Shown one piece after another: positions 556 to 61,275 of a stretch of DNA of 64,000 nt. The notes under the pieces are model-generated. The model was not told the DNA's origin. It did no database searches and worked only from the letters and a program-made list of their open reading frames with translations. The DNA comes from a virus (Duplodnaviria; Caudoviricetes): positions 96,001 through 160,000 of the IMG/VR virus record IMGVR_UViG_3300033463_000011. The stretch is one strand, 5' to 3'. The position numbers were made by a program, and so were the translations under genes. How positions within the stretch are numbered: position 1 is the stretch's first letter; each line of letters opens with the position of its first letter.

Positions 556-897
556 ATGAAGATCTACATAAAATCATCAAAGTATTCATACCAAGGCAGT
601 GTAGCTGATAAGTTTGGTAATATAAGAATTCGTGATAGTTATTTTGAGACCATTGCGAATAGTGAAGCAGAAGCTAAGCGAAATATATTATCTCAAGCTA
701 AAAGGAGGTTAGGATTGAAGAATTCTGCATATCTTAAATTAGTATCTCCTGAAAAGATTGATGAATGTGTTGATAATGCTGTAGAAACTTATTCAGGCCA
801 AGATAGAATATACTGCCCTAATTGCGGAATGCGATTAACAGATGGTGGCTTCTGTCCTAATTGCTATTCCGAAGGCGATGAAACAAATTATAGTTAG
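556..897 (+). CDS. Hypothetical protein with N-terminal MKIYIKSS tag and C-terminal Zn ribbon (CPNCG...CPNC)
   Basis: ORF track 544..897; ATG 556 gives the tag start. Confidence 0.75.
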   Translation: MKIYIKSSKYSYQGSVADKFGNIRIRDSYFETIANSEAEAKRNILSQAKRRLGLKNSAYLKLVSPEKIDECVDNAVETYSGQDRIYCPNCGMRLTDGGFCPNCYSEGDETNYS

Positions 898-922
898 CCC
901 ATATTGAAGTTCTTTCTTTTTA

Positions 923-960
923 ACAAAATGCCCCAAGATTAATTTCTTGGGGTGTTTTGT
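923..960 (+). terminator. Intrinsic terminator-like hairpin
   Basis: ACAAAATGCCCCAAGA-ttaatt-TCTTGGGGTGTTTTGT. Confidence 0.7.
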
Positions 961-1009
961 GTCCATGAATCGTTATAGAATATACATTAATATAGGAGAG
1001 TTTATAAAC

Positions 1010-1153
1010 ATGCAAGCAGGCAGACCTAGTAATTTAACTAGCTATGCAAAAGAACTTAGAGAAAATCAGCTTAAGGAGCAAATAAGAATTTTAGAACAAC
1101 AGTTAAATAATGCTCGAAGAGATTTGAAATTATTGGAGAAAAGAAATTTATGA
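1010..1153 (+). CDS. Small coiled-coil hypothetical protein
   Basis: ATG 1010 follows an AGGAG RBS, with AATCGTTAT at 968. The track start at 947 lies inside the terminator. Confidence 0.6.
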   Translation: MQAGRPSNLTSYAKELRENQLKEQIRILEQQLNNARRDLKLLEKRNL

Positions 1154-58209: not shown

Positions 58210-58307
58210 TCATATCTACAACTTAAATTAATGAGGTTAGTTGCATATAGTAACTAACCTTTTATATTGATATCCATTATGATATTATATTACGGAGGCG
58301 ATATTAA

Positions 58308-59801
58308 ATGGCTAAAAAAGCTACAGTAACATCAGCTATCGAAGAGCCTAAGAATACATCTTCTGTGCTCGGAACATTTACTGGTAAGTGTTGCGATGCA
58401 GCTGTGTTCAACAATAACTCAATGAAGCTTAATAGGGAGTTATTTGAGAAGTTACTTGATTCTGATGAATACAAGGACGCAATAGAGCATAGATATTATA
58501 TCGGATTTTTAGGTCACCCAGAAGATCCCGGTTGCCAAAATTTCAAAGATGCATGTATTGTAATGACATCTATGGAAATAACTTCTGATGATGAAATACT
58601 CGGCACATTTGACTTAGTAGATACTCCTGTAGGTAGGATTGTTAAGTCATTTATCGATGCAGGTGTTGAATGGGGAATTTCAATCAGAGGCGCAGGCGAT
58701 GTAGATAGTGAAGGTAATGTAGATCCTGATACATTCGTATTTAGAGGTTTCGACTTAGTTGCATTTCCTGCTTACGGTGACGCAGTTCCTGAATTCCAGC
58801 AAGTTGCAGCTTCATCTAACCTTGATGACCAAGTTAAGTTTAAGCGAGTTTGTGCTGCAATTGAAAAGAACATTAAAGAAGTTACTAGCCTTAATTCTAT
58901 TGAAGCTATGCAGGAACAGTTTAATCCTGATTCAGACCAATATAAGAAGCTTGAAGCAAGGAAAGAAGATATTGGTGTAGGTACTGAAGATGAGTGCCCT
59001 GAATGTTCTGATGAAGATAAACAGGAAATACTCGCTAAGAAACTTCAAGCAGTAACAAATCTTTACATTGAAGAACACAATAAAAATAAAGAACTCGAAT
59101 CTGCTTTAGCATCAACTCAATTACAATATGATAGAGAAATACAGAGCATCAAGAGAATAAAAGCAAGTCAAGATAAGTTAATGCAATCCAAGTTGGAAAC
59201 TATTAAAGCATCAAATCAAAAATTATTAAAATCTAATCACGGATTAGTGCTCGCTAACAAGCAGTTATCTAACGATTTAGAAACATTAGAAGCGGAAAAT
59301 TCTCAAATAGCTAAAGAATTAAACGCATCTAATAAAAATAACCTTATTTATAAACAGAAGATAGAGAGTTCCTCTACTGATATCCAAACTAAAGATACGC
59401 AGATTGCTGAATTGCGTGAAAAGCTTAACAAGACTGTTGTTGCAAGTACAAACGCAAGGAAAGAAGCATCAAACCGTGGTGAGCAACTGGAAAGCCTTAA
59501 GGAAGAGATATCAGCTTCTAATCAAGAGCTTGATGAAATGTTAACACGAATTCAAGCGATGGAAGAAACGATTCATGAATATCAGCAAGCATACGCTAAT
59601 ATTTATGCAAACGCAATAGGAATTCAAGCATCTGGTTTATCTGTTACTGCATCAACTTCTGTTAGCGATTTGGAAAACTTAATCAAATGCGCAACGAATA
59701 CATCAAATATCGGAGCAATGCCGTCGTTCAGTGAAGAAGACGAAGAAGCATTTCTTCCATCCGATGTAACTAACAGTGGAAACGATTTAGCAGTACTTTA
59801 A
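58308..59801 (+). CDS. Prohead (maturation) protease fused to a scaffold-like coiled coil
   Basis: GFLGHPED, DTPVGRIVKSFIDAGVEWGISIRGAG, FDLVAFPAY (T4 gp21-like His/Ser/Asp); immediately upstream of the capsid gene. Confidence 0.88.
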   Translation: MAKKATVTSAIEEPKNTSSVLGTFTGKCCDAAVFNNNSMKLNRELFEKLLDSDEYKDAIEHRYYIGFLGHPEDPGCQNFKDACIVMTSMEITSDDEILGTFDLVDTPVGRIVKSFIDAGVEWGISIRGAGDVDSEGNVDPDTFVFRGFDLVAFPAYGDAVPEFQQVAASSNLDDQVKFKRVCAAIEKNIKEVTSLNSIEAMQEQFNPDSDQYKKLEARKEDIGVGTEDECPECSDEDKQEILAKKLQAVTNLYIEEHNKNKELESALASTQLQYDREIQSIKRIKASQDKLMQSKLETIKASNQKLLKSNHGLVLANKQLSNDLETLEAENSQIAKELNASNKNNLIYKQKIESSSTDIQTKDTQIAELREKLNKTVVASTNARKEASNRGEQLESLKEEISASNQELDEMLTRIQAMEETIHEYQQAYANIYANAIGIQASGLSVTASTSVSDLENLIKCATNTSNIGAMPSFSEEDEEAFLPSDVTNSGNDLAVL

Positions 59802-59835
59802 TTATTTTAAAGATATTAAACATTAGGAGACTAAC

Positions 59836-61275
59836 ATGGCTATTAAAAAGACAACTCGTAGAGTTACCCCTACTAGCATTACAGCTGCAAGAAGTCTTAA
59901 TAGACCCGCAAGAATTGGTTATTCCGCACCTCGCAGCATCAATGCAGGCACATCAATCACATCTGCTTCTCGCAGATCCGCAAGACCTGTAAGCAGAACA
60001 GCTTCTTCTGTAGAGCTTACACAGCAGCAGAGAGTTTTCTGCAATCAGCTCATTGCAAACACACGTAAGCTTGCTCCTGTTATGGCAGCAACAAACACAT
60101 CAAACATCATGGCTAAGCCTGAGTTCACAGAGCTCCTTCCTCTCTTCGTACAGAAGTTGCTCGTTCTCGATGTATTTGGTTCAGTAGCAATGAATTCTCG
60201 TCAGCAGATCATTCCTTACTTCAAGTTCATCGCAGAGAACACAAAGGGTGAGACAGCTGCAGGTACAATCCTCTCTTCTGCTTTCGTAAACAGACAGGGA
60301 ATGGATCCGAACTTCACAGGTCGTGTAATTAAGAATGAGGCAGTTGCTAACAGCACACTCGTTTATACACCTATCCTTCCTGGTTCAGTTTCTATCTCCG
60401 ATGGTACTAATGTATACATCGACGATGGTGCTGGTAACCTCATTAAGAAGTCTGATTCTTCTAGCGCAGGTACAATCAATTATGCTACTGGTGCAATTGG
60501 CACACTTGTAGGAACACTTTCTGCTTCTTATGAGTATGACAACGAGACAGTAGGTCCTGACCAGAATGGTCAGTATGGTGCTAAGATGGCTAAGGGCTAT
60601 CTCCAGCTCGATGAGATCAACATGGTAGCAGAAGCACACGAGATCGCTTGCTACTGGTCAATCTATTCTGCATTCGCAGCTCAGCAGGAGTACGGTGCAA
60701 ACATCGGCGAGATTTCTAAGGAAGCTGCTTTCTCTGAACTCACAGCAGAAATCAACAGCGCTTGCTTCAACGAACTCGCTCAGGCAGCTACATACAATCC
60801 TCAGTTCAACTGGGATGCATCTCTTGCATTCAACGGTGCTGTAATGCCTTCTGATTTCCTTAACCTCTTCAAGTTCAAGCTTGACGATGCAGCTAACGCA
60901 GTATACCAGGCAACAAACCTCACAAGACCTAACAGACTCATTGTTGGTACAAAGGTTGCTTCTCTCATTTCCAGACTTCCTGGTTTCTCTTCTGGTGCAC
61001 CTGAGGAAACAGTTGGACCTTACAAGCTCGGTACACTTGATCAGTATGTTATCTACGTAGATCCTTACTATGATCCGAATACTTGGGTAATGTGCGCTAA
61101 GAGCAACGACATTAGACGTAACTCTGCACTTTACGGCGAATATATGCCTATGGTAAAGACAGACGATATCGGTCTTGCTAACGCTAGTGTACAATCCGGT
61201 TTTGCAACTATGTACGCAACCAAGATCGTCAATCCGGCAACAATTATTTCCGGTAAGGTTCTCGGCGCATTCTAA
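59836..61275 (+). CDS. Major capsid protein, T4 gp23-like, with an Arg/Ser-rich propeptide
   Basis: GSVAMNSRQQIIPY, WSIYSAFAAQQEYG, ELTAEIN, KLGTLD..VIYVDPY, YGEYMP, GFATMYA; biased codon use; terminator follows. Confidence 0.9.
   Translation: MAIKKTTRRVTPTSITAARSLNRPARIGYSAPRSINAGTSITSASRRSARPVSRTASSVELTQQQRVFCNQLIANTRKLAPVMAATNTSNIMAKPEFTELLPLFVQKLLVLDVFGSVAMNSRQQIIPYFKFIAENTKGETAAGTILSSAFVNRQGMDPNFTGRVIKNEAVANSTLVYTPILPGSVSISDGTNVYIDDGAGNLIKKSDSSSAGTINYATGAIGTLVGTLSASYEYDNETVGPDQNGQYGAKMAKGYLQLDEINMVAEAHEIACYWSIYSAFAAQQEYGANIGEISKEAAFSELTAEINSACFNELAQAATYNPQFNWDASLAFNGAVMPSDFLNLFKFKLDDAANAVYQATNLTRPNRLIVGTKVASLISRLPGFSSGAPEETVGPYKLGTLDQYVIYVDPYYDPNTWVMCAKSNDIRRNSALYGEYMPMVKTDDIGLANASVQSGFATMYATKIVNPATIISGKVLGAF

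Follow-up and report, generated by a model that had tools for sequence, protein, structure and literature searches.

We suggest that a short, basic leader shared by 46 open reading frames (ORFs) in a 64,000-nucleotide stretch of phage DNA (the window) is likely a propeptide for capsid targeting and maturation, comparable to the capsid-targeting sequence (CTS) of phage T4 and read by a protease of the T4 gp21 family whose P1 residue has moved from Glu to a small residue. The window spans positions 96,001-160,000 of a 200,233-bp phage contig (IMGVR_UViG_3300033463_000011) that has a terminal repeat of more than 100 bp, and it carries tail, baseplate and head genes on the plus strand. The leader ends in [I/V]-x-[A/S/C] followed by a small residue. 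A first-pass annotation of the window had proposed such a T4-analogous tag with a small P1 residue, and comparison of capsid, scaffold, accessory leaders and protease between related phages supports this proposal at the sequence level.

Small residue or Glu at homologous columns

The prohead protease of this phage is fused to a scaffold. Related protease-scaffold proteins number 1,246, Glu-type relatives included, with about 85 Ala-type representatives at 50% identity; 146 fusions gathered at that level were compared. In all 85 fusions whose catalytic Ser is followed by Ile or Val, [IVL]-x-[ACS] sites outnumber [IVL]-x-E sites in the tail (means 11.1 and 1.0), whereas 58 of the 61 with Ser at this position show the reverse pattern (3.4 Ala-type versus 9.9 Glu-type). 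Residue 168, at the junction of protease and scaffold, is Ala in 100% of the Ile/Val type and Glu in 91% of the Ser type.

The same opposition is found in accessory leaders. When the third motif position was not preset, leaders in loci of the Ala-type clade had Ala 64 times and Glu 10 times, compared with 0 and 13 in sister loci. In whole or near-whole genomes, six clade members have 167 Ala/Cys/Ser leaders versus 10 with Glu, and three sisters 10 versus 43; the sisters carry mirror leaders such as MKLRIKE/S (a slash marks the predicted cut). Three accessory families present on both sides switch at one alignment column: the family of the leucine-rich-repeat (LRR) protein 8406 (window genes are named by their start) reads YISA/AK in the clade and ILNE/AK in a Glu-type phage; a 318-aa family reads YIQS/A and SITA/A in the clade and RLIE/D in sisters; and a 140-aa family reads YIKC/S in the clade and IVYE/S or VLTE/N in sisters. 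At the capsid maturation column, sister phages have L/I-x-Glu where aligned. The sister genomes are more AT-rich than the clade, yet their leaders have Glu. Because the homologous columns of the sisters follow the rule measured for T4 gp21, L/I-X-E (PMC9026906), the Ala sites are very probably cut sites.

The protease-scaffold fusion and the major capsid protein

58308-59801, plus strand: prohead protease fused to a coiled-coil scaffold, S77/T4 gp21 type, protease at residues ~19-159
58410-58775, plus strand: clade-specific changes near the active site, from column comparison of the 146 fusions and alignment to 5JBL
59836-61275, plus strand: gp23-type major capsid protein (Pfam Gp23, E=1.5e-17)

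The protease belongs to the S77/gp21 family. Its catalytic columns His70, Ser125 and Asp149 are invariant and align with those of gp21, and it matches PHROG 207 (E=8e-19), Pfam PF03420 (E=7.5e-5, below the curated cut-off) and, by profile, the T4 gp21 structure 5JBL (E=1.6e-6). A PDB search with the single protease sequence gave no match, although profile searches did. Foldseek placed the predicted structure closest to 5JBL (probability 1.0), followed weakly by herpesvirus proteases. The sequence departs from the L/I-x-Glu cutting rule of the family, since the homologous sites carry Ala, Gly, Ser or Cys.

The residues specific to the clade are Asn36 and Met39 (both Arg in the Glu-type relatives), Phe67 (Glu there), Ile126 (Ser there), Phe153 and Tyr156. 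Compared with Glu-type enzymes and T4 gp21, the Ala-type enzymes have lost two Arg of an N-R-N-x-R segment (positions 36 and 39), and have Phe or Tyr for Glu67 and Ile or Val for Ser126. A P1 that changed from acidic to small would plausibly require just this, fewer Arg and a bulkier neighbour of the catalytic Ser. In a midpoint-rooted tree of phage proteases (142 columns, assemblins not included), the Ala-type enzymes form one branch (support 100/100, stem 1.11) inside the group that contains Bacillus phage SP-15, with distant T4-like proteases outside. Since the Ala branch is nested among Glu-type proteases, the Ala state is most likely derived and arose once. A predicted complex between the protease domain and 38 residues of a tagged N-terminus scored 0.00 and was used neither way.

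Within the fusion protein, sites of the motif are found at residues 7-10, at a putative domain-release site (Ala168/Ser169) and in the scaffold, where 15 copies compare with 4.2 after shuffling (residues 160-497, p=5e-5). The capsid has a basic propeptide (residues 1-84, 59836-60087) with four likely sites, and residues 1-86 hold six motif copies versus 1.5 in shuffled sequence (p=0.002). Maturation is predicted to occur at Ala84/Ala85, before ATN(T); across 56 distinct orthologous propeptides P3 is always I or V and P1 always A or G. Neither the protease domain (p=0.68) nor the mature capsid (p=0.19) is enriched over shuffled sequence. The enrichment of the motif only in removable regions favours its reading as a cut site. 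Of the capsid sites listed in the first-pass annotation, VFCN and LIAN are probably no sites. We rejected these two because they lie in a conserved helix of the propeptide and their motif is not kept in orthologs.

Two side observations concern the capsid gene and its 3' flank. In one Glu-type sister (L016:9950-11795) the gene consists of two ORFs about 570 bp apart, which suggests an intron, as annotated in SP-15. Directly after the capsid gene of the window lie long Cys-rich proteins (61478-63364 and 63509-64000), possibly homing endonucleases, and similar proteins sit at the same place in many relatives.

Occurrence of the leader

All N-termini quoted in the first-pass annotation were recovered at their positions, and the internal motifs that it quoted are present. 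Of 48 curated ORFs in the window, 38 match [IVL]-x-[ACS]-[SANG] within residues 2-17, eight are near misses (e.g. 6323, 46627 and 45208) and two are barrel-family members without a tag (11579 and 41992). The curated list for the whole genome has 73 entries, 55 of them exact matches, and about 70 genes of the phage are tagged; the tag system thus reaches well outside the window. The suggested comparison with shuffled sequences gave enrichment at N-termini, as in scaffold and capsid propeptide: the motif lies within the first 12 residues of 61 out of 274 ORFs, where 19.6 are expected, and with the paralog family removed it is still found in 34 out of 241 (17.3 expected; mean 13.5 and maximum 26 in 1000 N-terminal shuffles).

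The motif has no fixed position, lying between residue 3 and residue 13 or beyond; the leaders are 5-16 residues long, and each tagged gene here has a single site at the extreme N-terminus with an intact domain behind it. In the predicted model the leader has low confidence and lies outside the folded barrel. Tyr occupies residue 4 in 62 out of 73 listed leaders; the pattern used for selection accounts for part of this count, and the clade as a whole does not share the feature. None of the 73 has a membrane-like segment, and the mature proteins are mostly acidic (median pI 4.7-4.8). As noted before, the leader is missing from tail sheath, tape measure, baseplate wedge, portal, helicase, NADAR and the gene that had been called a resolvase (4457); a gene of the baseplate region, 38505, matches the motif without a basic leader.

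Tagged proteins and the Sm-like barrel family

The first-pass annotation counted about 45 unrelated tagged proteins. The leaders are real, but 40 ORFs of the window share one Sm-like barrel, which occurs in 42 ORFs of the genome; beyond the barrel there are about 8-9 other tagged families in the window, and 8406, 10107 and 56119 share a domain. The tagged genes and their relatives are as follows.

556-897, plus strand: tagged 113-aa protein, weak zinc-ribbon matches
1950-2705, plus strand: tagged 251-aa protein, no family; GTG start, overlapping the NADAR stop codon
3079-4074, plus strand: tagged 331-aa protein; leaderless homologs (as called) in two Glu-type phages
4083-5397, plus strand: two tagged Sm-like barrel paralogs (4083, 4981) around an untagged gene
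5428-5823, plus strand: tagged 131-aa protein, no family
6323-8100, plus strand: two long-form proteins (helical N-terminus and C-terminal barrel); 6323 near-miss tag, 7249 degenerate tag; form conserved in relatives
8406-11387, plus strand: two tagged BspA-type LRR proteins; orthologs keep the tag
11579-12873, plus strand: three Sm-like barrel paralogs; 11579 untagged, 12679 short
17286-17972, plus strand: tagged 228-aa protein, no family
17974-20594, plus strand: eight Sm-like barrel paralogs, all tagged, following the tail sheath gene downstream
40568-44740, plus strand: twelve Sm-like barrel paralogs, of which 41992 has no clear tag
45208-49305, plus strand: ten Sm-like barrel paralogs with a tag or a near miss, two of the long form and eight short
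51451-52439, plus strand: three Sm-like barrel paralogs; 51451 untagged
55361-55696, plus strand: tagged acidic 111-aa protein; tagged homologs in relatives
56119-57237, plus strand: 372-aa acidic protein, long leader form (site at residues 13-16)
57412-58209, plus strand: tagged phosphoribosyltransferase-fold protein (Pfam PF00156, E=3e-6)

The barrel is predicted with confidence (pLDDT 87) as a small Sm/Hfq/WYL-like fold. Its best structural match is the WYL domain of CapW at Z 6.5, within the range of common small barrels, and we therefore assign it no function. A BFVD search with the barrel found no match at E<=0.001, and the ESM Atlas returned nothing usable for the barrel or for 3079. 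Each of 29 related genomes searched has 0-2 copies of the barrel, which there usually forms the C-terminal part of a tagged protein of 260-330 aa; this long form occurs in 7 of the 29 and is kept here at 6323, 7249, 45208 and 45885. The difference between 0-2 copies and 42 indicates a lineage-specific expansion. The family also carries a conserved C-terminal P-x-E-x-x-T-x-x-E, and its genes (window 4083-52439) are interleaved with baseplate genes. Just after the short paralog 12679, positions 12971-14519 read as an apparent IS200/IS605 tnpA-tnpB pair.

Pfam gave no match at curated level for 20 tagged proteins, and the Pfam and PHROG scans of the cargo tested found no family of T4 internal proteins (IP), with no comparison aimed at T4 CTS or IPI-III. 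About half of the tagged genes outside the barrel family lack a homolog in the relatives searched. Others are conserved: the BspA-type LRR orthologs keep the leader in 34 out of 34 close matches besides the query, and several tagged proteins, some of them with multiple sites (e.g. genome 169493, with 33 homologs), are conserved across the clade beside head genes and may be core proteins. Small tagged proteins with clade-wide homologs were also seen (L178:10493-10900, L178:7198-7452, L179:11523-11864 and L176:19120-19305); one of them, with several sites, directly follows the neck gene, and they are candidates for core proteins similar to gp67 and gp68.

Gene context and candidate promoters

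Tagged genes cluster among structural genes, and none lies at 1-28 kb of the genome, a region of small early-type genes, or at 50-74 kb, where the replication genes are. One intergenic element recurs in this context.

58256-58266, plus strand: AACCTTDTAT, candidate late-promoter element upstream of the protease-capsid operon

Further copies are found at about 464, 2711, 14670, 25689, 25978, 49324, 53880 and 55695 of the window. The element stands ahead of the genes for portal, protease, sheath and baseplate, and loci of the clade retain it. Of two promoter-like motifs it is the nearer one for 54 out of 73 tagged genes and for 103 out of 217 others, counts that operons make non-independent. Location and element fit a late expression of the tagged genes. 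The T4 late promoter TATAAATA showed no excess among upstream words, and AACCTTDTAT is unlike it.

A second motif, gAATCGTTATA, is likewise intergenic (window 483, 968, 1504, 3032, 20600, 23822, 53847 and 63479, with about 20 further sites outside the window). It lies 30-100 nt ahead of the starts of replication genes and others, and a looser pattern of it occurs 35 times on the plus and 9 times on the minus strand. It is also present in a prophage of Ruminococcus callidus described below, and is a candidate for a phage-specific middle promoter. A 278-aa protein (L175:13153-13989; genome 59153-59989) has two homologs in the R. callidus prophage and a weak PHROG match of unknown function; our guess is that it might be a sigma-like factor for both motifs.

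Proposed mechanism and alternative explanations

We propose that the tagged genes, which lie among structural genes and mostly downstream of the candidate late promoter, would be expressed late, and that the basic, unstructured leader of 5-16 residues would, by analogy with T4, direct its protein into the prohead core formed by protease and scaffold. There the protease would free itself at Ala168, fragment the scaffold, remove capsid residues 1-84 and trim the leaders, presumably cutting after [I/V]-x-[A/S/C/G] and before a small residue, as the observed placement and co-variation of the sites suggest. Loss of the two Arg, together with the replacement of Glu67 by Phe and of Ser126 by Ile or Val, may have made the S1 pocket, once basic, shallow and apolar. 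As the weakest step of this scheme, the trimmed variable proteins might be retained by the head and pass into the host together with the DNA, where they would probably act on host defence or in takeover. We hold with great confidence that the motif is a protease site and, somewhat less firmly, that the leaders are cut by the head protease; it is probable that most tagged proteins are in the head, and an even chance that the variable ones are injected effectors.

Several observations weigh against this scheme. Eight leaders of the window depart from the motif, and three barrel paralogs have no leader. The shortest leaders, of five residues, hardly exceed the cut site, while T4 uses ten, which suffice for targeting (PMC9026906). 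The cargo is acidic, unlike T4-like CTS proteins, which are described as basic (PMC9026906). The homologs of 3079 in two Glu-type sisters have no leader as called, and no switch is seen there, a pattern that would fit a leader added as a module. Finally, the change from Glu to Ala is a single branch (100/100), so that the large number of genomes adds no independent replication, and the putative pocket residues are indistinguishable from other differences of the clade.

It would be conceivable that the leaders are real sites and the proteins enter the prohead, but that they are mostly structural core, filler or head-size proteins like T4 gp67 and gp68 rather than injected effectors. The conservation of several tagged proteins beside head genes, some of them with multiple sites, the acidic cargo and the presence of the long-form barrel protein in related genomes all suit this idea. 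We nevertheless consider it unlikely: the single, extreme N-terminal site before an intact domain has its T4 equivalent in proteins retained in the virion, whereas core proteins are fragmented (PMC9026906), and both the lack of homologs for about half of the non-family genes and the rise of the barrel from 0-2 to 42 copies represent the turnover expected of conflict genes. The view of the first-pass annotation that this is a much larger cargo system than that of T4 calls for reservation: most tagged genes belong to one recent paralog expansion, and several conserved ones may encode proteins of core or scaffold instead of injected cargo.

Alternatively, the leader could be a cytoplasmic signal for a phage or host protease, serving activation or as a ClpX-type N-terminal degron, without packaging. 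Starts of the type Met-basic-hydrophobic resemble N-terminal motifs of ClpX substrates, and the shortest leaders hold little beyond the cut site. However, a host degron would not switch its P1 along with the phage protease. Moreover, T4 gp21 is active after prohead assembly, when it frees itself, degrades the scaffold and trims capsid and leaders (PMC9958956), so substrates are expected inside the head; we regard this explanation as quite improbable. A recognition sequence for a modifying enzyme, as in ribosomally synthesized and post-translationally modified peptides, has very little to recommend it, as the capsid maturation site and the scaffold share the motif, which changes together with the protease; no leader-linked maturase turned up, although no search was aimed at one. 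Barely credible is the idea, raised in part by the first-pass annotation, that the leader merely reflects AT-rich start codons or a duplicated DNA cassette: codons 2-8 do have 27% G+C versus 31% in untagged genes, and most members are one paralog family, but synonymous codons vary (the Ser after the cut is encoded by TCN 22 times and AGY 13 times), and the motif floats, recurs in scaffold and capsid and becomes Glu in more AT-rich sisters.

Returning to the packaged and trimmed leader, it would be tempting to tell its history as one step, in which a widespread group of phages of gut Clostridia shifted the specificity of a T4-type protease to Ala instead of Glu and rewrote every substrate, thereby gaining a label of 5-7 residues that loads tens of proteins into the head, here a 42-member arsenal of Sm/WYL-like barrels acting as decoys or inhibitors of nucleic-acid-sensing defences. 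This full account is speculative, and we think it rather doubtful as a whole.

Related phages and a prophage in a cultured strain

The closest isolates are remote, namely Bacillus phages HSE3 and SP-15, Listeria phage LIS04 and Streptococcus phage GXN1 (27-29% capsid identity for the set), and further relatives come from assemblies of Clostridia, Oscillospiraceae and Ruminococcus and from one Muribaculaceae bin. Each genome of the uncultured Glu-type sisters (L213-L245; G023, G024, G025) has 10-19 basic leaders that end in [IVL]-x-Glu, which makes these leaders a candidate for an equivalent cargo system. The large terminase subunit of the phage is split over two ORFs (L177:7017-9526; genome 84017-86526), the second of which opens with an intein-like segment; split ORFs are also seen in SP-15, LIS04 and an uncultured relative (L096), and a single ORF in other sisters.

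In R. callidus ATCC 27760 (NZ_CP186925.1), a low-GC region of ~143 kb (about 1.431-1.574 Mb) is syntenic with the phage and is apparently a complete prophage, with a large serine recombinase at one end (1572311). Its protease is of the Ala type (11 Ala versus 1 Glu sites), its capsid has the maturation site, and about 10 of its accessory genes are tagged; its ortholog of 57412, 26% identical, carries a tag too. If inducible, this prophage in a cultured strain is a test system for the main prediction. Should the leader indeed serve packaging, sequence would reveal what a large clade of gut phages carries in the head, and the tagged genes would become candidates for counter-defence proteins injected into Gram-positive gut hosts. 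In addition, the natural swap between Glu and Ala points to candidate specificity residues, in a phage enzyme whose predicted sites resemble those of herpesvirus assemblins.

Comparison with known systems

The system resembles T4 gp21 and its CTS proteins (IPI-III and Alt) in protease family and fold, in an aliphatic P3, and in the distribution of sites over capsid propeptide, scaffold, protease N-terminus and the short leaders of variable accessory proteins. It differs from T4 in having Ala, Ser, Cys or Gly rather than Glu at P1, a fusion of protease and scaffold, a leader of variable length, about 70 tagged genes versus four, a mostly acidic cargo and Gram-positive gut hosts. In sequence, the Met-Lys-x-Tyr start is presumably the sole resemblance of the leader to the T4 CTS. 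Tyr is often found at residue 4, which is a targeting position in T4 (PMC9026906).

In giant phages (phiKZ gp175 and SPN3US gp245) a homologous protease likewise trims many head proteins. SPN3US has about 50 head proteins, including a 20-member family of head paralogs, family B, which differs in size from phage to phage (PMC5694885); a large cargo is thus no novelty by itself. In the literature that we covered, which is incomplete, the gp21-type head proteases (T4, phiKZ, 201phi2-1 and SPN3US) cut after Glu, and we found no description of an Ala-cutting gp21-type enzyme, of this leader motif, or of the clade or the prophage.

The Thornevirus phages SP-15 and LIS04 and the uncultured Glu-type sisters share syntenic head and tail modules and the protease-scaffold fusion, and the uncultured sisters have mirror-image basic leaders on accessory proteins. 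Unlike in the clade, however, their sites all end in Glu and their protease keeps the Arg pair, the Glu and the Ser.

A further likeness is to the herpesvirus assemblins (S21; pUL26 of pseudorabies virus (PrV), UL80a of human cytomegalovirus; R and M sites), which share the fold, as weak Foldseek matches indicate, the fusion of protease and scaffold, sites of the form Tyr-x-x-Ala/small and Val-x-Ala/Ser, and an aliphatic residue after the catalytic Ser. PrV assemblin has Leu at this position and predicted sites YLQA-T and VQA-S (PMC4498786). The putative release site, x-x-Ala/small, is similar as well, with Ala168 invariant in Ala-type fusions. In contrast, identity is 6-13%, the assemblins have a Ser-His-His triad and an Arg-Arg oxyanion loop where the clade has His-Ser-Asp columns and no Arg-Arg loop after Asp149, and the cited descriptions of assemblins include no accessory leader system. 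Because the clade is nested among Glu-type phage proteases and the triads differ, the likeness to assemblins is best read as convergence.

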